From a virus (taxonomy: Duplodnaviria; Heunggongvirae; Uroviricota; Caudoviricetes): DNA of 64,000 nucleotides. The stretch's first letter is position 1. Every line of letters begins with the position of its first letter. The stretch lies in IMG/VR virus record IMGVR_UViG_2861079508_000001; one strand, written 5' to 3'. The notes under the pieces are model-generated. The model was not told the DNA's origin. It did no database searches and worked only from the letters and a program-made list of their open reading frames with translations. A program made the translations under genes and the position numbers. Below, piece after piece: positions 20,206 through 40,968 of this stretch.

Positions 20206-21780
20206 TCACTCGTTCTCTTGAGTAGATGAGTCCCCATTCCCTCGGGGTTGATCTTGCCCGCTTTCTTGGGCTGCACCACGATCATAAGTAAGTACTGACT
20301 TATTTTCAAGGGTATTTAGATCATTTTTTGGCGGAAAATTCAAGAGATCTTTATCAAATTCCTTTTTCATCGCCTCAGTAATGTTCGGGAAAATCTTCTC
20401 AATAAGCATTTCCATCTGGTGACGACGTACAGAGTCCGGTGCCTGAAGTAATGACAGTTTCTCGGCAACAGAAAATTCATCTGTAAGGCCACGAATATCG
20501 AAACTTTCTGGATACGCAATTAAAGAGTGGTCTTCGTCCAGATCTACCCCCATCCATTTCGCAACCAGTAGCATGATTTGGCGTTCAGCCCTTTCCAGAC
20601 GCTCTGCTTTTGTGACAAGCAAGCTATTTACACGCTGGAAGTCATACATTTTTGCGGCACCAGATGAGTTATCAATTCCCTGTGCGTTGTCCTGCTTCGT
20701 TCGCTCACCAGCGACACCAACTGAATGGTAGATTTCGTTAATCACCGTCTTAATCGTAGTGATGATCATCTGAGCTTGTTTCGGGTCTGGTGACAAATAA
20801 AACGGCTGGTTTCCACCTTCAGAATCGTAGGTGAAGACTCGCTTTGTGCCCATTTCAAGCACTTTAGTGTGGTTTTCATCACCAGGTAAAAGCGACTGTA
20901 CTGGTATAGCCAACTGGCTAAATGTCTGATCCTGAATAATGGCATCAAGGTTTGACAGATAGTTTGCAACCGCACGATCAAGATAAGCGATATCATCGAT
21001 CAACGATGGGCTGAAATACGGTGATTCACTTTCTCCAATACAATCAACAGGAAACACAGGAACTACGCTGAGATTATGCTCACCGCTATCCTCTAAAATA
21101 ACTTTTGCCTGACGGCGACCTGCTCCACCAGCGCCCTTCTTCACTTCCTCACGGAACAGATACCACTCGTTTTGTGTCCACAGACGATAACGTTGGTATT
21201 CCTGACCTGTAGAAGTAAAAGGATCTGCGTCATCACGAGCGACTTCCACAATTAACGCCCACAACATATTCCCGTCGTCGTCCCATGCCACATCCAGCAT
21301 TTGCTGAGGTGAAATCCAGTAGGCGTAGGCGCGAGCATCTTTCTTTTTCTCGTCAGCTACTGACTCAACATCACCACTCATCGTGCTATCGACAACAACC
21401 CATATGCGACCGTAAATAGACGACTGCAAATCAATAGCGGCCATAAATGAGTCAATAGAGGCATTCTGGCGAGTCGCACGTTTCCAGAAATTGCGGATCT
21501 GCTCTGGTGCCTCTTCGATATTTCTATGAATGTCTTCTTTAAAGAGATATTTGTTGATGAGGTTTACCACCTCACGAGTGTGGTTGAAGCGATAAGCACG
21601 CTCAACTCGCTCCTTAAACTCCTGATCTCCCTCTTTAAAGTAACGAAAGATATTGTCTGTAAACCAACCACGCCCGCCAGCGTAAGTGCTGGCGAGGAAG
21701 TCCCAATGTTCTTTTTTCTTTTCGTATTCCGGGTGGCGTCGCGCCACCAGATCCTTAATTTGTTTGTCGTTCAATTCCAT
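20206..21780 (-). CDS. portal protein
   Basis: 524 aa ORF between terminase large subunit and scaffold. Confidence 0.65.
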   Translation of the reverse strand: MELNDKQIKDLVARRHPEYEKKKEHWDFLASTYAGGRGWFTDNIFRYFKEGDQEFKERVERAYRFNHTREVVNLINKYLFKEDIHRNIEEAPEQIRNFWKRATRQNASIDSFMAAIDLQSSIYGRIWVVVDSTMSGDVESVADEKKKDARAYAYWISPQQMLDVAWDDDGNMLWALIVEVARDDADPFTSTGQEYQRYRLWTQNEWYLFREEVKKGAGGAGRRQAKVILEDSGEHNLSVVPVFPVDCIGESESPYFSPSLIDDIAYLDRAVANYLSNLDAIIQDQTFSQLAIPVQSLLPGDENHTKVLEMGTKRVFTYDSEGGNQPFYLSPDPKQAQMIITTIKTVINEIYHSVGVAGERTKQDNAQGIDNSSGAAKMYDFQRVNSLLVTKAERLERAERQIMLLVAKWMGVDLDEDHSLIAYPESFDIRGLTDEFSVAEKLSLLQAPDSVRRHQMEMLIEKIFPNITEAMKKEFDKDLLNFPPKNDLNTLENKSVLTYDRGAAQESGQDQPRGNGDSSTQENE

Positions 21781-21806: not shown

Positions 21807-23063
21807 CTATCGAGAACCACCAAGAATAACACGGTTTTTGACTGGATACCTACGATGTACTGGATAGCCCAATGCGTCTGCACTATGCTCAATGCCACCT
21901 GTCTTATCCATATCTCGTGTTCCAGGCTTGTAGATGACTTTTTCCAGTGAATCAATCAAATGCTTGCACTTCGGATCGATATACAACCGGATATCTCCAG
22001 ATGCGGTCATCAGCATTCGGTTAACAGCATTAACACGATCCGCAATTGGCGGGTGCTTTTTCGAATAATCGACACGTAAGAATCCCTTCTCTTTGAATAT
22101 GTCGACGTCAGACTCCCCGCGAGCATGTTGGCGATAAGCACCTGCCGGATCTGGAAATACCGTTATCTGTGATTTCCAGCGCCAGAAGCGTCTCTCAAGC
22201 TCATCACAAACCTCTGCCGTGTTAGAGGAAAAGAGCACCAATTCATCAATTGCCCATAGCTCACCATTTGGCTGAGGTTGCAAAATTACTGAAGACATCG
22301 GGTCAATGTTGAAGTCCTGCCCTACCCATATAGGCAACCGAGGGTTGAACTGAAGCGGTTTTACATGCACGTTACGATCGAACGGGTAGTAAACGCGCCC
22401 GGACATGTTCTCAAAGCTCGCCAGGTACTCCTGAGCGAACGATTTCGGGTCCATATCGTTCTTAGCAGCTTCAATTTCCGCCGTAGGCACAAACGGAGAA
22501 TCGGCAGTTACAAACTGCCAGCTCTTCCACTGTCCCTTTCTTTGCAGCTCTACGTTCTGGCCTATAGTCCACAGTTTGTGAAATTCCGAGAAACCTTTTG
22601 GCGTACCAATGATAAGTGCACCGCCGCGTGTCGATGAAAGAGTAGGTCGTAACACCTTGTACCAGGTGTCAGCCTTCATATCCTGAAATTCATCAAGCAC
22701 TACAAAATGCAACGCTACGCCGCGCAGAGTGTCAGGCTTATCAGCACCTTTGAGGGCGATCTCCGAACCGTTCTTCAACACGATTGTCATCGTGGTGTCG
22801 TTCTTTTTCCTAACCCACTTACGAGGCAGAACTTCCTGTAGATCGTCCCACAAAATCTGGCGAGCCATCTGGTAAGTAGGAGCGACATACCAGACCCTTT
22901 GCTTTTTTTCCTTTGCCGCCGCACGAATAATAGTGGAGATCGACAACCGGGATTTTCCCCAGCGTCGACCAGCACAAACAACTTTAAATCGATGCGGAGA
23001 CTGGAAGACTTTCATCTGTCCAGAATGCAGTTGCACAAGACTGAGCGAGGACGGGATTGCCAT
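21807..23063 (-). CDS. terminase large subunit
   Basis: Walker A CAGRRWGKS and Walker B VVLDEF ATPase motifs; C-terminal nuclease-like region. Confidence 0.75.
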   Translation of the reverse strand: MAIPSSLSLVQLHSGQMKVFQSPHRFKVVCAGRRWGKSRLSISTIIRAAAKEKKQRVWYVAPTYQMARQILWDDLQEVLPRKWVRKKNDTTMTIVLKNGSEIALKGADKPDTLRGVALHFVVLDEFQDMKADTWYKVLRPTLSSTRGGALIIGTPKGFSEFHKLWTIGQNVELQRKGQWKSWQFVTADSPFVPTAEIEAAKNDMDPKSFAQEYLASFENMSGRVYYPFDRNVHVKPLQFNPRLPIWVGQDFNIDPMSSVILQPQPNGELWAIDELVLFSSNTAEVCDELERRFWRWKSQITVFPDPAGAYRQHARGESDVDIFKEKGFLRVDYSKKHPPIADRVNAVNRMLMTASGDIRLYIDPKCKHLIDSLEKVIYKPGTRDMDKTGGIEHSADALGYPVHRRYPVKNRVILGGSR

Positions 23064-23695
23064 TATTCGTCCTCCCCTTCACTTCCATCATCTGTCGCAT
23101 CAAATTCGCTTAGAGCTTCTTCTTCCAACGTCTCAAGCAATTCGTCATCGATGATTTCAGGCTCGTCGTCTTCCTGACGTAATTTCGCCACCTGGGAAGG
23201 CGTAAGCTCACCAAATACCAGGTTCGGAATTTCTTCCTCGTCATTTTCCGCATGATCCATGCCCAATGCTTTGGACGAAACTTCAAAGCATTTTGCAAGG
23301 GTATTACTGGCTCTCTGTAAGCTCTTGAGAGAATCCTCAATCGCCCCTAAAGGCTTACCCTCACGTTTGGCCGTAGTGACTTCGACCATCACCATCTGCC
23401 CCAACGCATACGCCCAGCCGTCATAACGTGTACGACGTTCTTCTATCTTTTCCGCACGGGCTTTAGCGCGAAGCTCTGCGTCAGATTTAAGAGACTCACG
23501 AACCATCTTCCCAACAGAGTCCGCGCCTTTCTCTAATCCTCGCTTTTTGAAATGTCTGGAGAGTGTTTCACGACGAATGCCGTACTCTTCCTCCAGCTTT
23601 GAGAGTGTATATTCGCCTGACGTCCATTTGGCTTCAGCTTCGGCCCACTCCGCTGGTGTCAGGCGAGTTTTTACCTCGTCTTTTTCGACCGTCAT
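23063..23695 (-). CDS. terminase small subunit (putative)
   Basis: 210 aa, N-terminal HTH-like region, acidic C-terminus, directly upstream of terminase large subunit. Confidence 0.55.
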   Translation of the reverse strand: MTVEKDEVKTRLTPAEWAEAEAKWTSGEYTLSKLEEEYGIRRETLSRHFKKRGLEKGADSVGKMVRESLKSDAELRAKARAEKIEERRTRYDGWAYALGQMVMVEVTTAKREGKPLGAIEDSLKSLQRASNTLAKCFEVSSKALGMDHAENDEEEIPNLVFGELTPSQVAKLRQEDDEPEIIDDELLETLEEEALSEFDATDDGSEGEDE

Positions 23696-27147: not shown

Positions 27148-28707
27148 ATGACTGTTCGGATTGTATCTAACGCAGTAAATGCGCTTATTTCTGGCGCAGA
27201 TGACAAGGTAAAGCAACTGGTGCAGCAAATGTTGAGCTACGAAGTCGAGACTGGCGACTGGAAGGGCACAAGCACGATGTTCAACTGGAGTAAAAACTCG
27301 TTCCCTGCTGGCTTTGCCAAGCCTGTAGCGGCGAACTTGAACAAGGCGGGCATCAAATGTGTTCATATCCGCAAAGACAAAGCCCCGGCGCTTGGTAAAC
27401 CAAATCCGGCGGTTAACCCATTCCCATACAATCCTGATTATGCGTATCAGGATCAGACTGTGGAAACACTGGTTCGAGAGGGAATGATGATTGCGCAGAT
27501 CGCTACTGGTGGCGGGAAATCTAACGTTGCCTGCAAAGCAGCTGCACGTATCGGTCGAATGACATTATTTTTAACAACCCGCTCTGTTCTGATGTTTCAA
27601 ATGGCCGAAAACTTCCAGAGATCCATCGACTACCGCGCCGAAAATGGCGAACCGTGGTTAAAAGACCAAAAGGTTGGAGTCATTGGCTCGGGTGAGTTCC
27701 AGGTATCACGACATATCAACGTCGCTACAGTTCAAACTCTTGCAAGTTTCCTCGAAGAACCACCACGCGATGCAACACCAGATAAGAAAAGCTACCACCT
27801 CAAACGTCGGGAGTTGGTGAAACGCTTCCTTTCAAGTGTCTCTCTTCTTATTCTGGAAGAGGCGCATGAGTCTTCAGGCTCAAATTTCTATGACATCGCC
27901 AGATTATGTGTGAACGCAGACTATCGTCTGGCGCTTACAGCCACGCCGTTCATGAAGGATTCGACGGAAGCCAACATGCGCCTGATGGCGGTGGCCGGGC
28001 GAATTGAAATTAAAGTCACAGAAAAGTACCTGATTGATCGAGGCATTCTGGCAAAGCCGTACTTCCTTTATCATAAAGTTGCCTACAAGCCAGACGAGGC
28101 CAGAATCAAGGCCGAACTTGCCAACAAACACCTCAATTTTAGAGTTGGTATGAGCACCGCCTACCAAAAGGCTTATCAGTTGGGGATCGTGTATAATTTG
28201 GGACGTAACGAGGCCATTGTTCGCGAAGCATTGCTCTATAAGCAACATTCTCTCAATTGTATGACTCTGGTTCGTCTTAAACGCCACGGGCAAATCCTGA
28301 TGGAAATGATGAAAGAGTCCGGCCTTAGAGTTGACTTCATCTATGGGGAATCTAACCAGGCGACAAGGCAAGCAAAGCTGAACAGTTTAGCGTCTGGAGA
28401 AATAGATGTTTTAATAGGCTCGACTATTCTGGATGTCGGTGTTGATGTGCCAAGCGTTGGTGCGGTCATTCTTGCTGGTGGTGGGAAAGCAGAAGTTGAA
28501 ATGAGGCAGCGTGTCGGTCGTGGCTTACGAGCCAAAAAAAATCAGGCAAACGTGTGTTTTATCACTGATTTCATTGACATTAGCAACAAATACCTGTTGT
28601 CTCACTCTTATGAGCGAAAACACATCATCGACACCACACCTGGCTTTGCAGAAGGTGTATTGCCTATTGATGGAGCATTCGATTTTGGAGTTCTGAAACG
28701 AGATTAG
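27148..28707 (+). CDS. SF2 DEAH-box helicase
   Basis: Walker A TGGGKS, DEAH-like LEEAHE, motif III LTATP, motif VI QRVGRGLR. Confidence 0.75.
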   Translation: MTVRIVSNAVNALISGADDKVKQLVQQMLSYEVETGDWKGTSTMFNWSKNSFPAGFAKPVAANLNKAGIKCVHIRKDKAPALGKPNPAVNPFPYNPDYAYQDQTVETLVREGMMIAQIATGGGKSNVACKAAARIGRMTLFLTTRSVLMFQMAENFQRSIDYRAENGEPWLKDQKVGVIGSGEFQVSRHINVATVQTLASFLEEPPRDATPDKKSYHLKRRELVKRFLSSVSLLILEEAHESSGSNFYDIARLCVNADYRLALTATPFMKDSTEANMRLMAVAGRIEIKVTEKYLIDRGILAKPYFLYHKVAYKPDEARIKAELANKHLNFRVGMSTAYQKAYQLGIVYNLGRNEAIVREALLYKQHSLNCMTLVRLKRHGQILMEMMKESGLRVDFIYGESNQATRQAKLNSLASGEIDVLIGSTILDVGVDVPSVGAVILAGGGKAEVEMRQRVGRGLRAKKNQANVCFITDFIDISNKYLLSHSYERKHIIDTTPGFAEGVLPIDGAFDFGVLKRD

Positions 28708-28709
28708 TT

Positions 28710-28988
28710 ATGAGCGAAAAGAAAACAACTTATTGTCAGGTAGCATTGTCTGATAAGGCCAATGACAAACTTGGAAAGTTTCAAGTGAAACTAAAAGAAA
28801 AAAATATCAAAATGTCTAAGGCTGAAGTCATAAATACCATTCTGGAACAATTGACAATGGCCGACTTTGACAAGGTTATATCTTCTGTCGGGGCTTCCGC
28901 TAAGACTCGTGAGAAAATCATGCGTATCTATGAGAACTCTAATATGACAAAGGAAGATCTCGAAACGCTATTAAGCAGATTAAAATAA
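28710..28988 (+). CDS. hypothetical protein
   Basis: 92 aa ORF, translationally coupled to helicase. Confidence 0.4.
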   Translation: MSEKKTTYCQVALSDKANDKLGKFQVKLKEKNIKMSKAEVINTILEQLTMADFDKVISSVGASAKTREKIMRIYENSNMTKEDLETLLSRLK

Positions 28989-29014
28989 TCACGCTATCAA
29001 TTAGGGAGACAAAG

Positions 29015-29479
29015 ATGAAGTCTCCCATACTGTTCACTTTCTGTTCTAAAACTATCATGAAATACTCGCTTCTCCCTCTACTAACGTTACCAGTGTTGAT
29101 GCTTACCGCGTGCCAATCACGCCCAATATCAATCCATGACGCCAAACCAGCACCGCAGGCCAAAGTGTTCAAGTATCAAAGCGCAGCGCCAGCTACGTTG
29201 GTGGTAATGAGAGACACAGGTTTTGTAGGAGCTGGATGTGATGCTTCCATTTTCATCAACGGCGAAACTGTCGCAAAACTGGCTACAGGCGAAAAAGCGA
29301 CTTTCCATTTAAATGCCGGAGAATTAATTGTGGGTGCATCTCTTGAAGGTGCAGGTTTATGTGCTCTAAACCCCGCTCGTCAAGAGCGAGAAACGACTCT
29401 GAAGAATGGAGACACAAAAGCGTTCAGGGTGTTCACCAGCAATTCTGGTGACATCGACATTCTGCCAACAACTCTGTGA
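29015..29479 (+). CDS. lipoprotein (candidate superinfection exclusion protein)
   Basis: Signal peptide with lipobox LTAC; start may be internal Met (MKYSLL). Confidence 0.5.
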   Translation: MKSPILFTFCSKTIMKYSLLPLLTLPVLMLTACQSRPISIHDAKPAPQAKVFKYQSAAPATLVVMRDTGFVGAGCDASIFINGETVAKLATGEKATFHLNAGELIVGASLEGAGLCALNPARQERETTLKNGDTKAFRVFTSNSGDIDILPTTL

Positions 29480-29483
29480 TGAC

Positions 29484-30008
29484 ATGACAACCAAAGATAT
29501 TACCTACGGTATCCAAGCTGAACTCTGGCCGCGAGATTACACTAACGTTGAAAAACTACTGATGTTCTGGCGCAGAGAACAAATTCCTGTAAGGGTCACT
29601 CTCGAAGATGGCCAGGCGTTTTGCATGTACGTTTATGGCCTCATGCCATCTCGTAACAAAGTTGACCTTTGCCCAGCCCCTTTTGACAAAGAAAATCGTA
29701 TAAGGCTCCCACTTGAACGCATTAGTACAATTGAATCAGGTGTGGTTGACAGTATCGCTCACGATTTCAAAGGTCGACTAACAGTTCACCCTGATTATGT
29801 CGATAATCGGCCATCACGCCGCGATTTTTTTGCAATTTGCAACCAAGCCTACAAAGCAAACAAATCTATAAGGGTGTACATGGCGGATGGCCGTGAAATT
29901 GAGGGGGTGTCAGCAGGCGCAGATGCTTGTCAGGTTACACTACGTGTCGAGAACGGTAGAAAAATAGTTGTTTTGTTCGATTGGGTTGAACGAATTTTGC
30001 CTTTTTGA
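29484..30008 (+). CDS. hypothetical protein
   Basis: ORF 29406-30008 trimmed to first non-overlapping ATG (MTTKDITYG). Confidence 0.4.
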   Translation: MTTKDITYGIQAELWPRDYTNVEKLLMFWRREQIPVRVTLEDGQAFCMYVYGLMPSRNKVDLCPAPFDKENRIRLPLERISTIESGVVDSIAHDFKGRLTVHPDYVDNRPSRRDFFAICNQAYKANKSIRVYMADGREIEGVSAGADACQVTLRVENGRKIVVLFDWVERILPF

Positions 30009-30011
30009 GTT

Positions 30012-30320
30012 ATGAAATCGATATTGTTACCACCATTATTTTTACTTTGCTCAGTTACGGCAAATGCAATGGACTATAAGCCTGTCATTCAGTCGCTGAT
30101 GAATGACGTGTGCTCAACGTCTCAGAATGTATCAGTTTGCATGTATCAATTTTCGGCAGCCGTAAAAGCAGGAAAAGCGATAGGTGAGAATGTGGAACTG
30201 TGTAAGAAAGTGGCAAATGAAGAAAGGGCAATGTTGGATTGCGAATCTAGCGAGTCATCGGCACAGTTCGTTGATGCGCTATTTGACACCAATCGTAAGG
30301 CTGTAGAGTCTGTTCAATAA
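30012..30320 (+). CDS. secreted Cys-containing small protein
   Basis: N-terminal signal peptide ending ANA; 6 Cys. Confidence 0.45.
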   Translation: MKSILLPPLFLLCSVTANAMDYKPVIQSLMNDVCSTSQNVSVCMYQFSAAVKAGKAIGENVELCKKVANEERAMLDCESSESSAQFVDALFDTNRKAVESVQ

Positions 30321-30333
30321 ATCTATAAGGTTA

Positions 30334-30362
30334 ATAACCGGCTAAGTCCGGTTATTATTTTT
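30334..30362 (+). terminator. intrinsic terminator
   Basis: Hairpin ATAACCGG-CTAAGT-CCGGTTAT followed by T-run. Confidence 0.6.
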
Positions 30363-30509
30363 CACATCACTTCTTTATATCTACAAATCAAATAACCTAA
30401 ATATATATAAGGTCTAAAGCCGCAATCGATTATTTATTTAGGGAACACCTTCGACGATCTCGCTTTTATTTCTAGGACTTTCATCCCTGCAAAAAATTTT
30501 AAAAAACAC

Positions 30510-30538
30510 TTGCAATCTATTTTCGCGTATCGATAATT
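30510..30538 (+). promoter_or_regulatory. sigma70-like promoter (TTGCAA - 17 bp - GATAAT)
   Basis: Hexamers and spacing read from sequence, about 65 bp upstream of the 30603 ORF. Confidence 0.5.
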
Positions 30539-30602
30539 GAGCTCGTCGAAAGCGAAGACGCTAACGACAATAAATTTTAAATTTACATAAGGAAAAATTA
30601 TC

Positions 30603-31253
30603 ATGGCTAACATTATCATTTCTAAAAAATCCATCATTGAAGCTGCTTCCATTGTATCCGATGAACTGCGCGAAAAAGCAGATCTGGCAACTCAAACATA
30701 TAACGAACATTATAAAAATGGTACGCACACTAAAGCAGACAAAGCAAATATGCAAGCTGCGACCACTAAACTTGCTTACTTCATCAACAACGTCGTAAAC
30801 GCAGTAGAAGACGAAAAATTATGCTCTGTTTTCTACTATGCGATTAAAGCAAGCAAACAAGCGCCAGAAGTATTTTTCCGTGATGCAATGACTAATAGTT
30901 ATTCTCTGGAAAAACTGGTTTATCTGGTTAAATCAATTAAATCTGGTAAATGCGTTTATTCCATCGCTGATATGTCAGGATCTCGTGTATTCGCTTTAAT
31001 CGATATGATTAACGACGAGATCGACACGTTCACCAATGGCGCTGTTTTCGATTTAATGAATGAAGCTAAAAAAGCGTGCGAAATTAAATTGGACGCTGGC
31101 TATACTCAAGCCAACCAGTTGATCAATCTTTGCGAACGTCTTGGACTTGTTGAGAAAGTCAAAGGAATGGGAAGCGCAAAAGCTGGTACACAGCAATATC
31201 GCTTTATCAAGAATGATTTCTACAATTATTTAGCTGATGCTTTTAAAGCGTAA
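30603..31253 (+). CDS. hypothetical protein, AT-rich codon usage
   Basis: 216 aa ORF with RBS; composition differs from flanking phage genes. Confidence 0.5.
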   Translation: MANIIISKKSIIEAASIVSDELREKADLATQTYNEHYKNGTHTKADKANMQAATTKLAYFINNVVNAVEDEKLCSVFYYAIKASKQAPEVFFRDAMTNSYSLEKLVYLVKSIKSGKCVYSIADMSGSRVFALIDMINDEIDTFTNGAVFDLMNEAKKACEIKLDAGYTQANQLINLCERLGLVEKVKGMGSAKAGTQQYRFIKNDFYNYLADAFKA

Positions 31254-31265
31254 TTAATGGAATCA

Positions 31266-31283
31266 AGCGCCCACTATGGGCGC
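31266..31283 (+). terminator. hairpin AGCGCCCACTATGGGCGCT (copy 1, weak T-run)
   Basis: Inverted repeat; identical hairpin recurs at 31764-31782. Confidence 0.35.
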
Positions 31284-31303
31284 TTTAAAGGAGCTTTAAA
31301 AAA

Positions 31304-31507
31304 ATGGTCAGCTATGACAAGATCCGCGCAAAGTATCGCGCAAAGTATCGCGCTTATAAACTGGAATTAATCGATGATTTGATCGCGCAACGCGACCAAT
31401 TAAATTTTACGTTTTCTGATTTGCTTAACAGCAAGCGAGATTGCAAGCGCAAACGTGAATACTTACGTTTAAGCGCATTAATCGGAAAACTTCAAAATTC
31501 TATTTAA
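31304..31507 (+). CDS. hypothetical small protein (low-complexity N-terminus)
   Basis: 67 aa ORF containing a 12-bp tandem repeat. Confidence 0.3.
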   Translation: MVSYDKIRAKYRAKYRAYKLELIDDLIAQRDQLNFTFSDLLNSKRDCKRKREYLRLSALIGKLQNSI

Positions 31508-31528
31508 TTTTTTTTAAGGAGCTTAATC

Positions 31529-31759
31529 ATGTTTGTTCTTATCGCTGGCGTTAACGTCCATAATGAATATTATGTTAATCGCATCGCTGGGATCGCTGGT
31601 TACGCTGGGCGCGCAGTCGAGCTTATAGATGAAACGACGCGCAAAATTGACTTATTGAGCGACCAGGAGCGAAAAAAAGCAGACGTGAACGACGCTGATA
31701 TATTTTTAATGTTAAAAGCGTTTGTAGAAATGGGATTTAAAATCAGTTTACACAAATAA
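31529..31759 (+). CDS. hypothetical small protein
   Basis: 76 aa ORF with RBS AAGGAG. Confidence 0.35.
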   Translation: MFVLIAGVNVHNEYYVNRIAGIAGYAGRAVELIDETTRKIDLLSDQERKKADVNDADIFLMLKAFVEMGFKISLHK

Positions 31760-31763
31760 AATC

Positions 31764-31789
31764 GAGCGCCCACTATGGGCGCTTTTTTT
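31764..31789 (+). terminator. intrinsic terminator (hairpin AGCGCCCACTATGGGCGCT plus T7 run)
   Basis: hairpin followed by TTTTTTT. Confidence 0.65.
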
Positions 31790-31810
31790 CGTTTCCAATA
31801 CACCTACCAT

Positions 31811-31838
31811 AACGCGCCATCATTGGCGCGTTTTTATT
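31811..31838 (+). terminator. intrinsic terminator (AACGCGCCA-TCAT-TGGCGCGTT plus T-run)
   Basis: hairpin and T-run read from sequence. Confidence 0.55.
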
Positions 31839-32244
31839 GTCTTTAACTCACTCCAACAACATAAAAATAAGCGCCAAAATAACGCCATAGACGCGCTTTT
31901 ATATCCTTACCAGTACATGCCCATTACTTAACACATTAACGCGCTTAAAACGCATTATATTGCGCTATAGAGTATGGTTAATCATTGGCTTTTAGTCTTG
32001 CTATGTGATCCGCGTTTATTTGTCGGTGCGGATCGGCATTTTGTTTTGTTCTGTATCCGCTCGCGTATTATGTGCGCGTAATTTTTCACATAATCACACC
32101 ACTTAATCACGTATGTGATTATGCTACGAAAGAAATCTGGATGTCTCAGGCGACGAAAGTCATCATAATTTCCCCCGCTCACCTGTCCGACAACCGCTGG
32201 TTGGATTCCACCAGCTTCCCGATGTTTTTTCTACACAAAGGCGA

Positions 32245-32340
32245 ATGCAGCCGTTTCCCGAAAAAATCCTGGCCGTTCCCCGTCGGCTCATGAATACGTT
32301 CCTCGCCGTTTCTGAAAATTTCCCTGCGGCAGCTGGTGGC
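32245..32340. repeat. array of GCCGTTTCC(C/T)GAAAA-like repeats ending at a Chi octamer
   Basis: Three degenerate copies plus GCTGGTGG at about 32332-32339; related array at 35380-35520. Confidence 0.5.
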
Positions 32341-32375
32341 TATAGAGAAAGGGCCGTTTCTGGCCCTCTTCTCAG

Positions 32376-32858
32376 TTACACGCCATCAAGGATGTGGATG
32401 CGGTTGCTTGCGTATACATTCAGCATAAAGTTAGCGCAAAACAGTTTCCATGTATCAACGCCAGCGGTATACGTAATGTTTTTGCATTTAATTGCATTGT
32501 TGGCGATCCGCATCCCCTGCGATACTGCTTCATCGTCGGAAAATTTGAACGACGATTGAGTTTTAATCCAGACAGAAATCTGCGTAGCGAACTCAATCAG
32601 CTTGGACTGGCAGAATCGCCCGGAGCGCACCGGAAGGACGAACGTTCCGAATCCAGAATTTACCACATATGCTTTCTCAAATACCCGCGAGTAACGACGA
32701 TTGCCAATGATGTCGCGTGCAATAATGCATTTTTCTTGTGCTGACAGTTCTACCGTCTCATTGTCGCGCCATGCACCAAGTACTCGTTTTTCAATGTCAG
32801 AGAACGTTACAGCGATATTGCCATGTGCGGGTGCGTTTACAGTAGCGATAAAATTCAT
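32376..32858 (-). CDS. hypothetical protein
   Basis: 160 aa ORF preceded by promoter and motif. Confidence 0.5.
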   Translation of the reverse strand: MNFIATVNAPAHGNIAVTFSDIEKRVLGAWRDNETVELSAQEKCIIARDIIGNRRYSRVFEKAYVVNSGFGTFVLPVRSGRFCQSKLIEFATQISVWIKTQSSFKFSDDEAVSQGMRIANNAIKCKNITYTAGVDTWKLFCANFMLNVYASNRIHILDGV

Positions 32859-32876
32859 GATTAATTCCTTATCGTA

Positions 32877-32933
32877 AATAACAAATTGTTTTCTTGTTGG
32901 TGTTAATTATCGTTGTACGAATAAGGCGTCAAA
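32877..32933 (-). promoter_or_regulatory. sigma70-like promoter (TTGACG - 16 bp - GATAAT) with downstream AACAA-N-TTGTT motif
   Basis: Hexamers on minus strand; palindrome between -10 and RBS. Confidence 0.5.
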
Positions 32934-33208
32934 GTGGAAAGTTGCGGTAGCCGGACGGGAACAGGTGGGTTTGTCGGTTGCCTGGAGGTAAGAGGTTGGT
33001 GTTATTAGCCTGAGGGAAACAGGATGGTCATTTAAGACCACCAATGCTGGTGGCCTTAATAATTATCGCCCGATTACGCTAAGGATCTTTTCCTCAACTG
33101 ATTTGTTGTTGCGACTAAACTGCCTTGCGTATCTGATGACAGAAGAGGCGTTTTGCTTTCTGACCATCTCGGCTCTTTCCTTCAGGCGTTTCTTGAAATC
33201 GCCCATAT

Positions 33209-33625
33209 TTACCACCAGGCGCAGAAGGTCAGTCTGTTATTGTGAAAGTCGTGGTTCTTAATCAGATCTTCCACAAGCTCTTTCAACTGCCCCACATCAT
33301 GCCAGTAACCTTCGTCGTACTCCTGACTGCCGAAGAAAAAACCTTCCCGAGTAGGCAAGTACTCTTCGCAATTGCTTTCGTTTATGTGCATCAAATGAGC
33401 TTTCAGAAGACAAATGTCATTCATCGTTAATTCTAAAAGCTCACAATTTTCGACTTCACCTACGTTGCGCTCCATCCACCCAACGAGCGCATTGAACTTA
33501 CGGAAGTAAGCAACCTGCTTTCTGGATGCCTCGTTATTCAGATCGTTTTTAGGCTGTGTCTCGATATAGATATCAAGTCCCATGATGGTTTCCTTATTAA
33601 CTTGCTTCAGTAAAATCATTTTCAC
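33209..33625 (-). CDS. hypothetical protein
   Basis: 138 aa ORF; likely true start a few codons inside. Confidence 0.45.
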   Translation of the reverse strand: MKMILLKQVNKETIMGLDIYIETQPKNDLNNEASRKQVAYFRKFNALVGWMERNVGEVENCELLELTMNDICLLKAHLMHINESNCEEYLPTREGFFFGSQEYDEGYWHDVGQLKELVEDLIKNHDFHNNRLTFCAWW

Positions 33626-33666
33626 AAATCAGATAAGGCAGAAAACAAATTGTTATCTGGCTTAAT

Positions 33667-33692
33667 AAAATGGCGCGGTTTACGCGCCATTT
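33667..33692. terminator. intrinsic terminator hairpin (AATGGCGCG-GTTTA-CGCGCCATT)
   Basis: Hairpin flanked by A/T runs, immediately after a TAA at about 33701. Confidence 0.5.
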
Positions 33693-33856
33693 AAAGAGGA
33701 TTAAGCGAATACGCTTTCAGGGATTAAGGTGTCGGCAGGAATGCCAGAGGTAATGCGCAGGCCGTACTGACCAATCCAGGTAGTGTTGGTATTCAGGCTG
33801 GAGGCGAATACGGTGTTAACCATATTCATCATGGTTTCAAACACCTCTTCATCAAC

Positions 33857-34096
33857 CTAGCGGAAGTAGTTCTCGATTTTCAGCAGCAGCGGGTCAGTTG
33901 CATCGAGAATGGACTGGTATTGAGTCGCGTACTCGCCGCCGGAGGCATCACCTTTACGCACGATCGTACTGGCCTGGACTTCGGCACCAGTTTCGGTGTT
34001 GTACGTAACAACGGTAATTTTTGCCACATTCTTACCTTCGGCGGTTTCAGAGGCATAGTAAACATCAACTGTCAGTTTTTCGCGTTTAACGGTCAT
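33857..34096 (-). CDS. hypothetical protein, apparently truncated (79 aa) by a premature TAG
   Basis: ORF ends at TAG; protein-like reading frame continues about 49 codons to a TAA at about 33701 followed by a terminator. Confidence 0.45.
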   Translation of the reverse strand: MTVKREKLTVDVYYASETAEGKNVAKITVVTYNTETGAEVQASTIVRKGDASGGEYATQYQSILDATDPLLLKIENYFR

Positions 34097-34221
34097 TTCA
34101 CTCTCCGTAGTGTATTGGTTATTTTTATATTCTATAATCGTAAGTATTTACTTACAATACAAAAAGCCCCGTAAGGATGGCGGGGCTGTCGTACTGTCGA
34201 CTAATTGCCACTTGCACATTA

Positions 34222-34533
34222 TCAGGCTATTGCCATCACTGATGCTCTCTGAATTTCTTGCTGGGCCACGCGGTTAACTTCCATCAAGGCCAGTTCGAGC
34301 TGATGTTCCGGCCACATTCTTTGAAACGCCATCCAGCCTTTTCCACGCTGGCGACGAACATTCATTACATAACGAGTAAAGGTGTTTTTATCGAAAGACA
34401 CCGCTGTTTCACGGAACAGACGAATAGAGGTTCCATTGGCAACGATGTCCAGCAAAGTTAATTGAGCAACCAGCGCAGGCTTCTCTTTTCTCTTCTGGTC
34501 TTTGTCCAGACCAAGAACCAATGATTTTTTCAT
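34222..34533 (-). CDS. hypothetical protein
   Basis: Start at MKKSLVLG with RBS GGAG; motif AAACAACTTGTTTTCT immediately upstream. Confidence 0.5.
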   Translation of the reverse strand: MKKSLVLGLDKDQKRKEKPALVAQLTLLDIVANGTSIRLFRETAVSFDKNTFTRYVMNVRRQRGKGWMAFQRMWPEHQLELALMEVNRVAQQEIQRASVMAIA

Positions 34534-34544
34534 CACAACTCCGT

Positions 34545-34560
34545 AAACAACTTGTTTTCT
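34545..34560. promoter_or_regulatory. palindromic motif AAACAACTTGTTTTCT
   Basis: between -10-like TATTAT and RBS of downstream gene. Confidence 0.45.
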
Positions 34561-34687
34561 CAATGGCGTAAATAATACCAATAAGAAAACGGCTACAAAG
34601 CATAATGATCAGGTGCATGAGCGATATGCAGGTTCTTCCCTGCGGCTACAGATTAAGTTAAGCCAGCAATGCTGGCTTTGGTTGGGA

Positions 34688-35017
34688 TTACGCGAATACC
34701 TCAAGAAACTCCTGAACGTCCCAATGCTGGACGAGGTGAAGATAGACCTTAGAAATCACGTCATTTTCGCTATCGCATGTGAAGTAGTACTTCTGGCTGC
34801 GGTTGTATGTGTCCACACAAAATTCGCTCATATCCATAAAGTCAGCATCATCACCCAGGTCGCTAATCATCAAAGCAGGTGCATCATCACGAGTCATCAG
34901 CTCCAGCACCCATCTTGAATTAATCAGAGTGGAAGACCAACCTTCCAGCTCATAAAACTGGTCAAACTCTTTTTGAGTCAATTTCTTAATTTGGTTGATG
35001 TCGATATTTGCAAACAT
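34688..35017 (-). CDS. hypothetical acidic protein
   Basis: Start at MFANIDINQ with RBS AAGGA. Confidence 0.5.
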   Translation of the reverse strand: MFANIDINQIKKLTQKEFDQFYELEGWSSTLINSRWVLELMTRDDAPALMISDLGDDADFMDMSEFCVDTYNRSQKYYFTCDSENDVISKVYLHLVQHWDVQEFLEVFA

Positions 35018-35029
35018 AAAGCAATCCTT

Positions 35030-35045
35030 AAACAAGATGTTTTCT
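35030..35045. promoter_or_regulatory. palindromic motif AAACAAGATGTTTTCT
   Basis: between -10-like GATAAT and RBS. Confidence 0.45.
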
Positions 35046-35379
35046 TAATGGTGTTATTATCGCAATAACGCACAGGCGAAAAAGGATTTTATTCCGGTGA
35101 ATGTGGTTTTGGCAGTGAGTTTTCAGGTTCAGTACAGAGTACACTTTTTACATTATTCTGATTTAGTGGCCGAAGATGGCTGGTGGGCAGAATAATCATC
35201 TCCCCGAAAACCTACTGAAATCGATTGTGACCCGTTGGCTGTCTGGCACAATTACGCTGTAACTGGGCATTCAGAGGGAATCCAGCGGTAAGTAGGTTCG
35301 CCTTCACGTGAGCGCCTCTCTTCTTCCCGCACATTACAGGTGGGTAGCCGCAACTCTCCCTCTCGCTATGCCGGTACGC

Positions 35380-35520
35380 CGCCGTTCCTGAACCGGCATC
35401 GAGCCTTTTCCCGAAATCCACACAGGCAACTCGACCGTTTCCCTGAAAACCTCCAGCCGTTCCCCGAAGGCAACCCAGCCGTTTCTGTAGCGGGATGCAA
35501 CCTTTTCCCTGTATGGACCG
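35380..35520. repeat. array of about 6 degenerate (G)CCGTTTCCC(T)GAA-like repeats
   Basis: Units at about 22-bp spacing read from sequence; Chi octamer at about 35179-35186 nearby. Confidence 0.5.
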
Positions 35521-35619
35521 AAGGCTGACCGTAGGGGTGTTACGGGGGATAAAATCAGGAGTTGAATAAATACGAAAAAGGAGGCGACACCCCTCCTTCC
35601 CTCCCCACTTATACATACC

Positions 35620-36580
35620 TGGCTTCTTCGCTATACATGTTGTGTTTTATCTGTCTCAACCTCTCTATAGGCGTTAATGCTCACTCCTTCCAGAATGTTC
35701 TATACGGCAACTATTTCTGTTGGTGAATTGGGTGTGTTGTTCTCTCTGTCGGTGTATGTGGTTTCGTTCGTTTTGCGGTGGTTCTTCTATGGGGTGTTCT
35801 CGTCGTTTTGGTGATTGTTCTTCTCCGTGTATGGAGTAATGGCAGGTGGGCGATTCCTTTCGTTGTTGTGTTTGAGTTGTTTGTCTGGAGTGTGTGAAAG
35901 GCTTTTGCAGTTATTCGTGTATTGGGTAATGGCATTTCCCGTGATTGTTGTGTTTCGTGTCTTTTGGGATTGAGAGAAACCTTGCGGTTACAGGCTTCGT
36001 TGGGGTTTCAGTGATTCTGGTGTTCTTCGCTGTTTGGGGAATGGCGTGTCGTGGGTATCGCGCGTATGAATGTTTTCGGATTGCCTGTGAAAGTTAGGTT
36101 GGTTGTCCGGTAGCCTGGGGAGAAGAGGTGGGTCTTTTCGGTAGCCTGCCATAAAGAGGTTGGTTGTTTTTGGAAATGGCATTTGTGTTATTTAGTTGTT
36201 TTGTTATGCCTGAAAATAAGTTGTTTATATGGTTGTGTAACGCAACGGGAGCGATTTTGAGCGTGTGTTTTTGTTGGTAGTGTGTTGGGTCGTCTGTGGT
36301 GAAAATTGGACGCTGTGGCGCTGTCTGCTGCGTAGAGTTACGGGTATAAGCAGTGATGTGTGAAAACGTCAATTTTTTAGACCAAATCGGGTGAAAGCGT
36401 TGATGTTTCGTTGATCTGTTATTCAGTTGTTTTCTTGATTGTATAAACAACTATAACTTATTGATATTTAAGGATGTGATTGCGGGTATGGAAGAAGAGT
36501 AGTGGCGATCAACGGATTCTTATAGAAAAGAATCAAATTGTGACCGCCATTATCAACTGATTGATTTGTTTACTTGTGTA
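35620..36580. repeat. ORF-free GT-rich, C-depleted region with degenerate repeats
   Basis: No ORF of 60 aa or more on plus strand; strong G+T skew; repeated GGNAATGGC and GGTAGCCTG...AGAGGTNGGT units. Confidence 0.6.
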
Positions 36581-36581
36581 G

Positions 36582-36980
36582 TCAGTTCTCGAAATGAATA
36601 GGGTCAACGTAATGCCGCTCACCGCTTTTACCATTACACAGCACTGTAACTTTCGCCTTTTCACTCCAGGCTGAGTATAGAAAGTTCCCATCAGGTTGAA
36701 CATGGTAACGAGAGAAGTAAACATCGCCGACTGAGGCGTCGAACATGTTCCTATCTTTTTCACTTTGGGCAAGCGAGATGGATATCACCGAATTCCCATT
36801 TGGGGAAACGATTTTAAATTTATTCCCTATATCCATAACAATATTGTAACCAGGTAATTGCTTGTGTGTTTCCGGATCTATTTTCATGCATCGTGGGTAC
36901 ACGATAGTGTTAGGCTCTTCAACTGGCGTGGCATTAGCAGAAAGCACAAAAAATATTAGTGCCAATGGTGCATATTTCAT
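36582..36980 (-). CDS. secreted/periplasmic hypothetical protein
   Basis: N-terminal signal peptide MKYAPLALIFFVLSANA. Confidence 0.5.
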   Translation of the reverse strand: MKYAPLALIFFVLSANATPVEEPNTIVYPRCMKIDPETHKQLPGYNIVMDIGNKFKIVSPNGNSVISISLAQSEKDRNMFDASVGDVYFSRYHVQPDGNFLYSAWSEKAKVTVLCNGKSGERHYVDPIHFEN

Positions 36981-37274
36981 TTATCCCTCACAATTTCCAA
37001 TTTTCCAGACCATCGTCTATTTCAGCGTCAGGGTGGAATTGTACCGCATCAAATCCTACATCGAGCACCTTTCGAATGTTCTTGATGGTTTGCTATGTGA
37101 CACCGTAATCACGCAGCTTTTCTTCCCTCCCCTGACTCCCCCATACTCCGTTTCTGTACCCAATTGAGTCCGAGATTGTATGGTGCTCGAAACAGATATT
37201 TGGTAGACACTCAGAGTCATGCTGTGTAACGAGGGTAGGGCTACTAACTGTCGTCTTATACAATTTGGTGAGTT

Positions 37275-37523
37275 TCAGCATTTTACCACCCCGTTCGGAA
37301 ACAACTCATTCGCCGTAGTTGATATAACCTCCCAATTAACGCCGACATCAGCGTTATGGCATTGTCTGATTTTTTGCATCACCTGTACGCATTGTTCATC
37401 AGTGAGATCTGTCCTTACTTCAGCAATATCTTCTTTGTGCCACATAACCATGAGTAAGGGTTCGTCTTCTGGATAGTTTTTCAGTTTCTCGATGATTTCT
37501 TTTGCTGTTCCAAACATCTTCAT
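37275..37523 (-). CDS. hypothetical protein
   Basis: 82 aa ORF with motif upstream. Confidence 0.45.
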   Translation of the reverse strand: MKMFGTAKEIIEKLKNYPEDEPLLMVMWHKEDIAEVRTDLTDEQCVQVMQKIRQCHNADVGVNWEVISTTANELFPNGVVKC

Positions 37524-37528
37524 CTCCT

Positions 37529-37593
37529 AAACAATTTGTTTTCTTATATGACTTATTATCTCAATCAACAAAAGGTAGAAAACAAATTGTTTT
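37529..37593. promoter_or_regulatory. two inverted copies of AACAA-N-TTGTT motif; the second is split by the host-segment junction
   Basis: AAACAATTTGTTTTCT and AGAAAACAAATTGTTTT; the latter is completed by TTGTTTTCTAG at about 41159. Confidence 0.5.
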
Positions 37594-37656: not shown

Positions 37657-37676
37657 TGCGAAGAGAGGTTGTTTAA

Positions 37677-39710
37677 TTACTTAACCTGGTGGCCAGGTTT
37701 AGCACCAGCATCCGGGCTTAACAGGAAGATATCTTTCCCGCCGGGGCCAGCAGCCATCACCATGCCTTCAGAGATACCGAAGCGCATTTTACGTGGTGCC
37801 AGGTTAGCCACCATAATGGTGTGACGACCAATCAGTGCCTGTGGATCTGGATAAGCGGAACGGATGCCTGAGAAGACATTACGCTTTTCACCACCGAGAT
37901 CCAGCGTCAGGCGAAGCAGTTTGTCAGAACCTTCTACAAACTCTGCGTTTTCAATCAGCGCCACGCGCAGGTCAACTTTGGCGAAGTCGTCAAAGGTGAT
38001 AGTTTCCTGAATCGGGTCGTCAGCCAGTGGGCCAGTTACCGGTGCGGCTGTGGCTTTCACTTCTTCTTTGGATGCTTCCACCAGTGCTTCAACCTGCTTC
38101 ATATCGATGCGGTTATACAGTGCCTTGAACGGATTCACTTTATGGCCCAGCAGCGGTTGCTGGATACCATCCCAGGTCAGTTCTGTATTCAGGAATGCTT
38201 CTGCACGTTCAGTCAGTTTCGGCAGTACCGGTTTCAGGTACGTCATCAGCACGCGGAACAGGTTAATGCCCATAGAGCAAATCGCCTGCAGATCGGCATC
38301 GCGTCCTTCCTGCTTTGCCACCACCCACGGAGCCTGTTCATCAACATAGCGGTTAGCCAGGTCAGCCAGTGCCATGATTTCACGGATAGCTTTGCCAAAT
38401 TCGCGGCTTTCCCATGCTTCGCCAATCACTTCAGCGGCATCAGTAAAGGTTTTGTACAGTTGCGGGTCAGCCAGTTCGCTTGCCAGCACGCCGTCAAAAC
38501 GCTTGTTGATAAAGCCTGCATTACGGGAGGCCAGGTTAACCACTTTGTTAACGATATCGGCATTCACACGCTGAACGAAATCTTCCAGGTTGAGATCGAT
38601 ATCATCAATGCGCGAAGAGAGTTTCGCAGTGTAGTAGTAACGCAGGCTGTCGGCGTCAAAATGATTCAGCCAGGTGCTGGCTTTAATAAAGGTGCCGCGA
38701 GACTTGGACATCTTCGCGCCGTTCACCGTCACATAGCCGTGAACAAACAGGTTGGTCGGCTTGCGGAAGTTGCTGCCTTCCAGCATGGCAGGCCAGAACA
38801 GGCTGTGGAAGTAAACGATATCTTTGCCGATGAAGTGGTACAGCTCGGCGGTGGAGTCTTTCTTCCAGTATTCGTCGAAGCTGGTAGTGTCGCCGCGTTT
38901 GTCGCACAGATTCTTGAAGGAACCCATGTAGCCAATCGGCGCGTCCAGCCAGACGTAGAAGTATTTGCCCGGTGCGTTCGGAATTTCAAAACCGAAGTAA
39001 GGTGCGTCACGGGAGATATCCCACTGTTGCAGGCCAGATTCAAACCACTCCTGCATTTTGTTTGCCACCTGCTCCTGCAACGCACCGCTGCGGGTCCATG
39101 CCTGCAACATTTCGCTGAAAGAAGGCAGATCAAAGAAGAAGTGTTCGGAATCACGCATTACCGGTGTAGCGCCAGAAACCACTGATTTCGGCTCGATCAG
39201 TTCCGTCGGGCTGTATGTCGCGCCGCAGACTTCACAGTTATCGCCGTATTGATCCGGCGCTTTACATTTCGGGCATGTGCCTTTTACAAAACGGTCCGGC
39301 AGGAACATGCCTTTTTCCGGGTCGTACAGCTGAGAGATGGTGCGGTTTTTAATAAAACCGTTCTCTTTCAGGCGAGTATAGATAAGCTCGGACAACTGAC
39401 GGTTCTCTTCGCTGTGCGTCGAGTGATAGTTGTCATAGCTGATGTTAAAGCCTGCGAAATCAGTCTGATGTTCCTGACTCATTTCGCCAATCATCTGTTC
39501 CGGTGTGATACCAAGCTGCTGTGCTTTCAGCATGATTGGCGTACCGTGGGCATCGTCGGCACAGATGAAATTAACCTCGTGGCCGCGCATTCGCTGGTAA
39601 CGAACCCAGACATCAGCCTGGATGTGCTCCAGCATATGGCCGAGGTGGATTGAGCCGTTAGCGTACGGCAGCGCGCACGTCACCAGAATTTTCTTCGCGA
39701 CTTGGGTCAT
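37677..39710 (-). CDS. metG: methionine--tRNA ligase (enterobacterial host-type)
   Basis: 677 aa from [25 protein letters not shown] (HIGH motif), KMSKS motif, C-terminal tRNA-binding domain; near-identical to Escherichia MetG by recall. Confidence 0.95.
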
Positions 39711-39867
39711 AGTAGGCATTACTTCTTTGTAGTGAAAAGGGGCTTGATAGTAACAAAATGGCCTTATGTCTGCCATGTGATAACAGCATTTCTCATAAAT
39801 GATTAAATGTCGTAGCTGGAGTACACTACAAGGCGACAATTGCGCAAATTAAAATAAAGGAGACGGG

Positions 39868-40968
39868 ATGAGCGAGTCCAAATCGCCGGATGCCCTGAGA
39901 GCAATGGTAGCCGGTACGCTGGCTAATTTTCAGCACCCAACCCTGAAACACAACCTGACTACGCTTAAAGCGTTACACCATGTTGCGTTGATGGATGACA
40001 CACTGCATGTCGAACTAATCATGCCTTTCGTGTGGAATAAGCCTTTTGAAGACCTGAAAGAGCAATGTAGTGGTGATCTGCTCCGTATCACTGGCGCAAA
40101 GGCTATTGACTGGAAGCTGTCGTACAACATTGCCACGCTTAAGCGCGTCAAAAACCAACCAGGCATTAATGGCGTTAAGAACATTATCGCCGTCAGCTCA
40201 GGCAAGGGCGGCGTGGGTAAATCCTCCACGGCGGTAAACCTGGCACTGGCGTTGGCTGCTGAAGGTGCGAAAGTTGGTATTTTGGATGCCGATATCTATG
40301 GTCCATCAATTCCAACCATGCTGGGCGCGGAAAACCAACGTCCAACCTCACCGGACGGTACTCACATGGCACCTATCATGTCTCATGGCCTGGCAACCAA
40401 CTCTATTGGTTATCTGGTCACCGACGACAATGCAATGGTGTGGCGTGGACCGATGGCCAGCAAGGCGCTGATGCAGATGTTGCAGGAAACACTGTGGCCT
40501 GATCTGGACTATCTCGTTCTCGATATGCCACCGGGCACTGGTGATATTCAATTGACGCTGGCGCAGAACATTCCTGTAACTGGTGCGGTTGTGGTAACTA
40601 CGCCGCAAGACATCGCGCTGATCGATGCGAAGAAAGGCATTGTGATGTTCGAAAAAGTCGAAGTGCCGGTACTGGGTATCGTTGAAAACATGAGTGTGCA
40701 TATTTGCAGTAACTGCGGTCATCACGAGCCAATTTTTGGCACCGGTGGCGCACAGAAACTGGCCGAGAAATACAACACGCAGTTGTTAGGCCAAATGCCA
40801 CTTCATATCTCTCTTCGTGAAGATCTGGATAACGGAACACCAACCGTTATTAGTCGTCCAGATAGTGAATTTACGGCTATTTATCGTGACCTCGCAGATC
40901 GCGTTGCTGCCCAAATGTATTGGCAAGGTGAAGTAATACCTGGCGAAATCGCATTCCGCGCAGTGTGA
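39868..40968 (+). CDS. apbC: Fe-S cluster carrier ATPase ApbC/Mrp
   Basis: Walker [11 protein letters not shown] and CxxC motif CSNCGH; divergent from metG as in enterobacterial chromosomes. Confidence 0.95.

Follow-up and report, generated by a model that had tools for sequence, protein, structure and literature searches.

Four Chi octamers in one orientation, lying close to one another in a phage genome, raise the question of whether they guard a DNA end. The genome concerned is represented here by the window, a stretch of 64,000 nucleotides of the virus record IMGVR_UViG_2861079508_000001 whose positions serve as coordinates unless stated otherwise, and a sequence-only reading of it had proposed that four copies of GCTGGTGG on the + strand form an oriented cluster near a terminus, or else reflect strong selection on the accessory region. 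The E. coli plasmid pSJC33-2 (NZ_CP080257.1), a non-mobilizable circle of 113,446 bp, is 99.8-99.9% identical to the region, the Escherichia phages CMS-2020a, PhiR41_1, and Cyrano share 95-98% identity with it, and the Salmonella phage SSU5 ~80%. Because of these identities, the window is assigned to an SSU5-like phage-plasmid of E. coli. Every one of its closest relatives is a plasmid or phage from E. coli, Shigella, Salmonella, or Klebsiella, and the same Chi sequence is used by the RecBCD enzyme of these enterobacterial hosts (PMC12315714).

An exact search on both strands confirms the four + strand sites at 28474, 32332, 33046, and 35179. It also reports a - strand site within the same interval, at 32208, and 11 further sites elsewhere in the window, for a total of 16 (7+/9-; + strand: 8107, 28474, 32332, 33046, 35179, 52248, and 58005; - strand: 3704, 4784, 7859, 10944, 21125, 32208, 50534, 57206, and 57644). 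Dinucleotide-preserving shuffles yield 1.40 +/- 1.26 sites for both strands combined, which makes the initial expectation of about one site per strand a fair one, and none of 100 shuffles reached 16. By frequency, Chi ranks third among the 24,923 octamers of the window. The enrichment is strong, and it is window-wide rather than local. Indeed, given the window's own Chi density, finding 4 of the 7 + strand sites inside 6.7 kb has a probability of P=0.10, and finding 5 of the 16 sites there P=0.50; at least four + sites among five consecutive ones are expected with P=0.50, and the 7+/9- split with P=0.80. Clustering is likewise not significant in the complete pSJC33-2 (P=0.10-0.8 over window and plasmid), and circular scan statistics are unremarkable for pSJC33-2 and SSU5, while clustering is significant in the related genome pJN2-26 (P=0.002). 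The positions of the four sites and the Chi excess over shuffled sequence (16 vs 1.4) thus stand, whereas in this window the local clustering and the orientation bias do not reach significance: the oriented cluster arose from incomplete counting, the - strand site at 32208 and the 11 further sites having been left out.

The excess extends to the whole element. On pSJC33-2, Chi occurs 24 times (12+/12-), once per 4.7 kb, and Chi ranks as the commonest octamer in SSU5 (31 sites) and pJN2-26 (27 sites) and the third in pSJC33-2, behind an operator-like motif. When synonymous codons are shuffled within each of 115 genes, 6.0 +/- 2.1 genic Chi sites are expected against 19 observed, and 0 of 500 shuffles reached 19; the excess is found on both strands (12 vs 3.7 on the coding strand, 7 vs 2.3 on the template strand). 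The observed-to-expected ratio of Chi amounts to 9.3-10.4, while that of its 24 one-mismatch neighbours averages ~2 and culminates at 4.7, and hence the exact octamer is ~5 times more enriched than its neighbours. In pairwise genome alignments between genera, 44-54% of the aligned Chi sites are retained as Chi, compared with 14-20% of all octamers and 16-30% of those of the same composition, and retention also exceeds that of octamers within +/-150 bp (P=0.006, 0.001, and 3e-5). The codon-shuffle, neighbour, and conservation results speak for selection on the exact Chi sequence and against a by-product of codon usage or composition.

We consider it fairly likely that the four sites are ordinary members of this genome-wide and family-wide Chi excess, which would stem from selection for a productive interaction with RecBCD. 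The SSU5-like element lives mostly as a low-copy plasmid, and in infection and lytic growth it must also persist in the form of linear or concatemeric DNA. With a Chi about every 4 kb and on both strands, RecBCD would be switched from degradation to RecA loading in either direction of approach, and the outcome would be repair of broken forks as well as protection or recombinational processing of ends. The even use of both strands would suit an element that is maintained as a plasmid at ~5 copies per cell (PMC9928086) and may have ends exposed in many places. In the accessory region, intergenic Chi sites would be arranged for both directions of approach, with a convergent pair meeting RecBCD just before a block of 22-bp repeats. 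The precedent is that of P1, T5-like phages, and lambdoids such as LLS that lack a Rec module, for which this reading is established (PMC3784561, PMC12315714): an element that does not inhibit RecBCD accumulates Chi, with the result that its DNA is repaired or recombined by the enzyme and not destroyed. In line with it, the 20 proteins encoded between 21.8 and 37.5 kb match no Pfam or PHROG family of RecBCD inhibitor, and the annotations of the three complete genomes list none; in 1,227 SSU5-group contigs screened with DefenseFinder, the Rad anti-retron system was the only system reported (10.1101/2025.09.12.675607). The recombination genes annotated in the SSU5-like family comprise a RecA-like recombinase, a 5'-3' exonuclease, and an SbcCD-like nuclease pair (PMC7969092). 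Because of its encoded RecA-like recombinase and SbcCD-like nucleases, the family falls in the 'Rec+ Inh-' class of Bobay et al. and not in the Rec- one. We found no paper on Chi enrichment in SSU5-like elements in the literature searched. RecBCD as the selective agent, and the benefit that would result, are what we infer from these sequence data.

The same excess could be read as neutral amelioration, in which a long stay in enterobacteria imprinted on the element the biases of its hosts in oligonucleotides, codons, and repair (e.g., an excess of CTGG/CCAG), Chi being a by-product under no selection of its own in the element. This reading, unlikely to our mind but keeping some weight, accounts well for a density equal to that of the E. 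coli chromosome (one per 4.7 kb against one per 4.6 kb; PMC12315714), for the absence of strand polarity, for the roughly twofold enrichment of one-mismatch neighbours, and for Markov expectations that climb steeply with model order in pSJC33-2 (2.6 at order 1, 8.0 at order 4, 10.6 at order 5, and 19.1 at order 6, against the 24 sites observed). It does not account for the fivefold advantage of exact Chi over those neighbours, for counts three times those of the synonymous-codon shuffle on either strand, for a retention significantly above that of local and same-composition octamers, or for the persistence of intergenic Chi sites despite altered positions and contexts. Moreover, lambda shares the codon usage of the lambdoid phage LLS yet has no Chi (PMC12315714).

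Regarding polarity, a division of the genome into two arcs, whether replichore-like or related to packaging, is not significant in any of the three complete genomes: the best partitions leave 18 of 24, 24 of 31, and 22 of 27 sites consistent (P=0.38, 0.22, and 0.13). GC skew was ruled out as a cause of Chi orientation, being positive on the gene-coding strand throughout and not tracking the sites. As a separate observation, the segment from dnaE to repB contains, in all three genomes, a run of 4-5 template-strand Chi sites ending at the RepB gene (86202-105610 in pSJC33-2, outside the window; 47348-58722 in SSU5; 56988-66853 in pJN2-26 rotated to start at terS), and most Chi sites beyond repB are oriented oppositely to this run. 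No single run reaches significance (P=0.07-0.28), nor does GC skew account for the runs; they hint at a polarity switch at the plasmid origin.

What, then, distinguishes the stretch in which the four sites were noticed? The - strand of the window carries nearly all genes, in the order tail, head, portal, terminase (21.8-23.7 kb), ParB-like, and nucleotide-metabolism and replication genes, with RepB located at the right edge. A short block of + strand genes occupies 27.1-31.8 kb, small - strand genes without assigned function follow at 32.4-37.5 kb, and a captured metG-apbC segment comes next. Intergenic sites make up 4 of the 16 Chi sites of the window, and all four lie between 32.2 and 35.2 kb. 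A conserved gene of this region (phrog_1641, 160 residues, 32376-32858 on the - strand) served as an anchor for the retrieval of 77 loci (75 distinct) from viral contigs, with protein identities of 66-99%. The anchor gene itself contains zero Chi in 75/75 loci, while Chi occurs 352 times in the 400 kb of the loci, or once per 1.1 kb, with an even split between strands (174+/178-). Chi is the most frequent octamer of the pooled loci, ahead of the terminator, operator, and repeat octamers of the region. In a pre-specified homologous 5.5-kb region of the three complete genomes, 4, 4, and 7 sites were counted against 1.16, 1.64, and 1.35 expected (P=0.03, 0.085, and 0.0005), and local enrichment emerges only once relatives are included. 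The accessory region upstream of the terminase genes is therefore a local hot spot of intergenic Chi, without strand bias. The strong selective constraint first suspected there finds support in the retention of intergenic Chi among relatives of 66-99% identity, in the turnover of their positions, in four unrelated flanking contexts, and in the top rank of the octamer.

Two of the intergenic sites form a convergent pair, found in 59/75 loci. The proximal one (32332-32339 on the + strand in the window) lies 37 nt past the stop of the 160-residue gene, and its equivalents are found +30 to 60 nt past that stop in 60/75 loci. An invariant block of 18 nt surrounds it (CCACCAGCTSCCGCAGGG on the - strand), and the equivalent position is Chi in pJN2-26 and one mismatch away from it in SSU5. 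The distal one (32208-32215 on the - strand), the member that would be active for entry from the right end by the lambda convention, constitutes one arm of an imperfect hairpin (32196-32215). Its equivalents stand 150-230 nt past the anchor stop in 69/75 loci, in four unrelated flanking contexts and at shifted positions, a pattern that looks like turnover with retention. Some relatives possess two convergent pairs in tandem. Because the pair faces outward, RecBCD arriving from either side would meet a readable Chi first. The third intergenic site (33046-33053, + strand) covers the stem plus the loop of a hairpin at 33036-33055 (GaCCACCA-ATGC-TGGTGGcC); the hairpin is conserved, and many relatives have the reverse-complement loop, which places Chi on the opposite strand, or no Chi at all. 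The fourth (35179-35186, + strand), at the edge of a 2.2-kb gene-poor stretch, shares with the third 26 nt of context that are 81% identical. Its equivalent, at about -2328 from the anchor gene, is common in E. coli-type loci, and some relatives add an opposite Chi ~50 nt away. These divergent pairs of relatives are 11-nt inverted repeats. The remaining member of the original four (28474-28481, + strand) differs in being genic: it lies inside a DEAD/DEAH helicase gene (27148-28707, + strand), on the coding strand and in frame 0 (GCT GGT GG, Ala-Gly-Gly), and is not Chi in relatives (CCACCACC in SSU5, CCTCCGGC in pJN2-26).

Such settings invite the view that the sites at 32208, 32332, 33046, and 35179 belong to terminator-like hairpins, inverted repeats, or protein-binding sites adjoining the 22-bp repeats, and that their match to Chi is incidental. 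The conserved hairpin at 33046 with its flipping loop, the imperfect hairpin at 32208, the invariant block around 32332, the inverted repeats of relatives, and the context common to 33046 and 35179 are all in line with it, and it may explain individual intergenic sites, not the exact Chi spelling in so many elements. It is improbable that at least four independent elements all spell exactly GCTGGTGG, the downstream Chi is kept across four unrelated contexts and shifted positions, and Chi outranks the terminator, operator, and repeat octamers of the region. Furthermore, none of the Chi hairpins is called as an intrinsic terminator, and the idea that the convergent pair closes a helix of folded RNA or DNA was ruled out by fold energies at the level of shuffled sequence (z = -0.13 and -0.25), by a covariation term of +0.64 (no covariation), and by a consensus fold that leaves the arms unpaired. 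We hold this account of the four sites to be unlikely.

Between the two members of the pair stretches a non-coding block (32216-32331) with the motif GCCGTTYCY at 32250, 32272, and 32305, the first two copies being 22 bp apart, and a fourth copy at 32353 just outside. A second cluster (35381-35486, + strand) has copies at 35381, 35456, and 35478, the last two again 22 bp apart. The window contains 8 matches to this motif against 1.95 expected, 7 of which fall in two loci (32250-32361 and 35381-35486), and the repeats are kept in SSU5 and pJN2-26. They look like iterons or predicted protein-binding sites. A second replicon as their source was ruled out, rep_cluster_488 being the sole replicon type returned and the motif being absent near repB. 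If we assume that the pair is a purpose-built, two-way RecBCD gate around a cis-acting element made of these repeats, the element could act in copy control or partition, or serve as a replication origin, lytic or secondary. On its approach from either side, RecBCD would then be activated by Chi just before the block, which would be spared and become a RecA-loaded invading strand, and the polarity around the block would be the same as that around a chromosomal origin. A gate of this kind would mean that a mobile element positions Chi to protect or recombination-prime one particular site, beyond raising its genome-wide density. We regard it as quite unlikely.

There remains the DNA end from which the question started. 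The only candidate lies just upstream of the terS-like gene, at ~23.8 kb, a packaging start deduced from gene order (large terminase, 21807-23063, and terS-like DNA-binding protein, 23063-23695, both on the - strand) and from the start of the SSU5 and Cyrano records; no end mapping for SSU5-like virions, published or computable, was found in the literature searched. The TerL protein is ~25% similar to T5-like, Jersey-like, and P74-26 terminases, which is too distant to fix the packaging mode. The strand on which RecBCD reads Chi is the one with its 3' end at the entry point, and on a lambda-type map, where rightward-transcribed terminase genes lie at the left, the top-strand GCTGGTGG is active for right-end entry (PMC12315714). 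The four + sites are inactive for entry at the terS-proximal end because RecBCD moving into 24-36 kb reads the window's - strand, and 32208(-) is the sole site of the five that is oriented for it. Were the DNA cut between 32208 and 32332, the entering enzyme could read neither site, since both face outward from that interval. It is thus very improbable that the four + sites form a co-oriented cluster stopping RecBCD near a virion end or packaging site in the manner of the LLS right-end cluster, even if they lie 4.6-11.3 kb from the inferred packaging start, in a region that is Chi-dense family-wide, and even if Chi is concentrated immediately before the terminase gene in inhibitor-less lambdoids, with 20 of the 23 sites of LLS co-oriented (PMC3784561, PMC12315714): beyond their wrong orientation, their clustering and co-orientation are not significant in the window (P=0.10-0.5), orientations are mixed in the homologous region of SSU5 and pJN2-26 and balanced over the 75 loci, and the end itself is a candidate one.

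Selection for a productive encounter with RecBCD across the whole genome thus remains the explanation that we favour, and several points weigh against it. The order-6 Markov model, the strictest compositional one, expects 19.1 sites and leaves little excess, although this model is over-conditioned in a 113-kb genome because Chi sites themselves supply most of its heptamer counts. Common ancestry links the related genomes and the 75 loci, and counts across them are consequently not independent. Some intergenic sites stand inside other conserved features (the 18-nt block at 32332, the hairpin at 33046, and the 11-nt inverted repeats of relatives), and their conservation could serve another function. 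Many genes are hypothetical, and an unrecognised RecBCD inhibitor may be among them. The RecA-like recombinase, the SbcCD-like pair, and the exonucleases of the family depart from the lambdoid rule of 'no Rec module, high Chi'. Finally, the link between RecBCD and the Chi sites is itself drawn from sequence.

Among the closest known systems is the phage-plasmid P1, a plasmid prophage of E. coli that depends on host RecA and RecBCD and in which Chi is a top or near-top octamer, on both strands and around the genome (PMC12315714, PMC3784561). P1 contains 50 Chi, its top octamer, and LLS is also documented as Chi-rich (PMC12315714). The two types of element differ in density (50 sites, one per 1.9 kb, in P1 against 24-31 sites, one per 3.3-4.7 kb, in SSU5-like genomes), their genomes are otherwise unrelated, and P1 is devoid of a general recombinase and relies on RecBCD for the cyclisation of its DNA, which is terminally redundant, whereas SSU5-like elements encode a RecA-like recombinase and SbcCD-like nucleases. 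In phages without an inhibitor, Chi is enriched and concentrated between the replication genes and the terminase gene (PMC3784561). As in LLS and other lambdoids lacking a Rec module (Zheng et al. 2025) and in inhibitor-less lambdoids (Bobay et al. 2013), the Chi excess of SSU5-like elements goes beyond codon usage, no known RecBCD inhibitor has been found, and Chi is denser in the region preceding the terminase genes. In contrast to LLS, in which 20 of the 23 sites are co-oriented for right-end entry, SSU5-like sites are balanced between strands (12+/12- genome-wide in pSJC33-2, 174+/178- in the hot region), the window's four sites face the opposite way, and the family is Rec+.

The E. coli chromosome has the same octamer at the same density (about one per 4.6-4.7 kb) and with the same coding-strand preference (here 12 coding against 7 template sites), and differs by its strong replichore polarity, of which the phage-plasmid exhibits no significant two-arc equivalent (P=0.13-0.38), the run of 4-5 like-oriented sites by repB being the only hint. 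On plasmids, Chi was reportedly found by Dabert, Ehrlich, and Gruss in 1992 to protect rolling-circle or linear multimer DNA from RecBCD. A similar benefit is plausible in sigma-mode lytic replication with an exposed double-strand tail end, but the effect they described depends on orientation relative to the direction of replication, and both orientations are equal here.

The 11 Chi sites outside the interval are all genic. In the tail and head modules, two lie in the tail tip fiber gene (3704-3711 and 4784-4791, both - strand, coding strand), three in the tape measure gene (7859-7866 and 10944-10951, - strand, coding strand, both also Chi in SSU5; 8107-8114, + strand, template strand), and one in the portal gene (21125-21132, - strand, coding strand). 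On the far side of the window, one is located in a hypothetical gene (50534-50541, - strand, coding strand), one in a hypothetical gene beside dfrA51 (52248-52255, + strand, template strand; also Chi in SSU5 and pJN2-26), and three in nrdA (57206-57213 and 57644-57651, - strand, coding strand, the latter also Chi in pJN2-26; 58005-58012, + strand, template strand). The dfrA51 gene, encoding a trimethoprim-resistant dihydrofolate reductase (about 51490-51965, - strand), sits within the phage nucleotide-metabolism cluster, and its presence on phage-plasmids has been described previously (PMC12217456). In the tape measure gene, ~1.3 kb (11120-12429; local G+C of 0.54) have no counterpart in pSJC33-2, appearing as a gap between BLAST segments, and likely represent a tape-measure length variant.

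Other features of the accessory region were observed alongside the Chi sites. A palindromic motif, AGAAAACAAnTTGTTTTCT, precedes small - strand genes (at 32878-32894, 33640-33656, 34545-34560, 35029-35045, 36424-36444, 37528-37544, and 37577-37592, and elsewhere), and its octamers AAACAACT (18 copies), GAAAACAA (17 copies), and AGAAAACA (16 copies) are the only ones above or level with Chi in the window; one regulator probably uses it as an operator or promoter element. The gene-poor stretch adjoining the site at 35179 (35036-37275, 2.2 kb without annotated gene) holds GT-rich direct repeats (35.7-36.1 kb) and 31-nt repeats in common with 32945-33033. Its part at 35.7-36.4 kb is 77-83% conserved in Enterobacter and Salmonella relatives, where it is likewise unannotated, and a search of 23-42 kb for Rfam RNA families returned nothing credible; the stretch may be a cis-acting region or a non-coding RNA. 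In the phrog_2473 gene (33857-34096, - strand), a TAG at 33857-33859 shortens the product to 79 residues where pSJC33-2 annotates 131, which is either a nonsense mutation or a sequencing error. The + strand gene at 29484-30008 reports a strong Pfam match with Flag1_repress (E = 1.5e-84; phase-1 flagellin repressor, FljA-like), a surprising finding in an E. coli phage-plasmid. Import of the region from the leading region of a conjugative plasmid, an idea prompted by a DUF1380 gene, was ruled out, as 620 of 638 matching plasmids are non-mobilizable SSU5-like elements. Further downstream, at about 37675-41050, a full-length metG (methionine-tRNA ligase) and apbC/mrp stand beside an IS1 remnant; this segment contains zero Chi and is 90-95% identical to more than 5,200 E. 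coli chromosomes, and these matches identify it as a chromosomal capture.

The class of Chi-rich phages (P1, T5-like, LLS) gains an SSU5-like member, whose enrichment goes beyond composition and codon usage. The signal of interest is genome-wide and bidirectional, and the abundance, specificity, and conservation of Chi would add a Rec+ phage-plasmid family to the Chi-dependent phages known so far from P1, T5-like phages, and LLS-type lambdoids. SSU5-like elements are the largest phage-plasmid supergroup in Enterobacteriaceae and travel with multidrug-resistant lineages of Salmonella Typhi and Shigella sonnei, and the Chi content of their genomes suggests a role for RecBCD as a host factor in their maintenance or infection.

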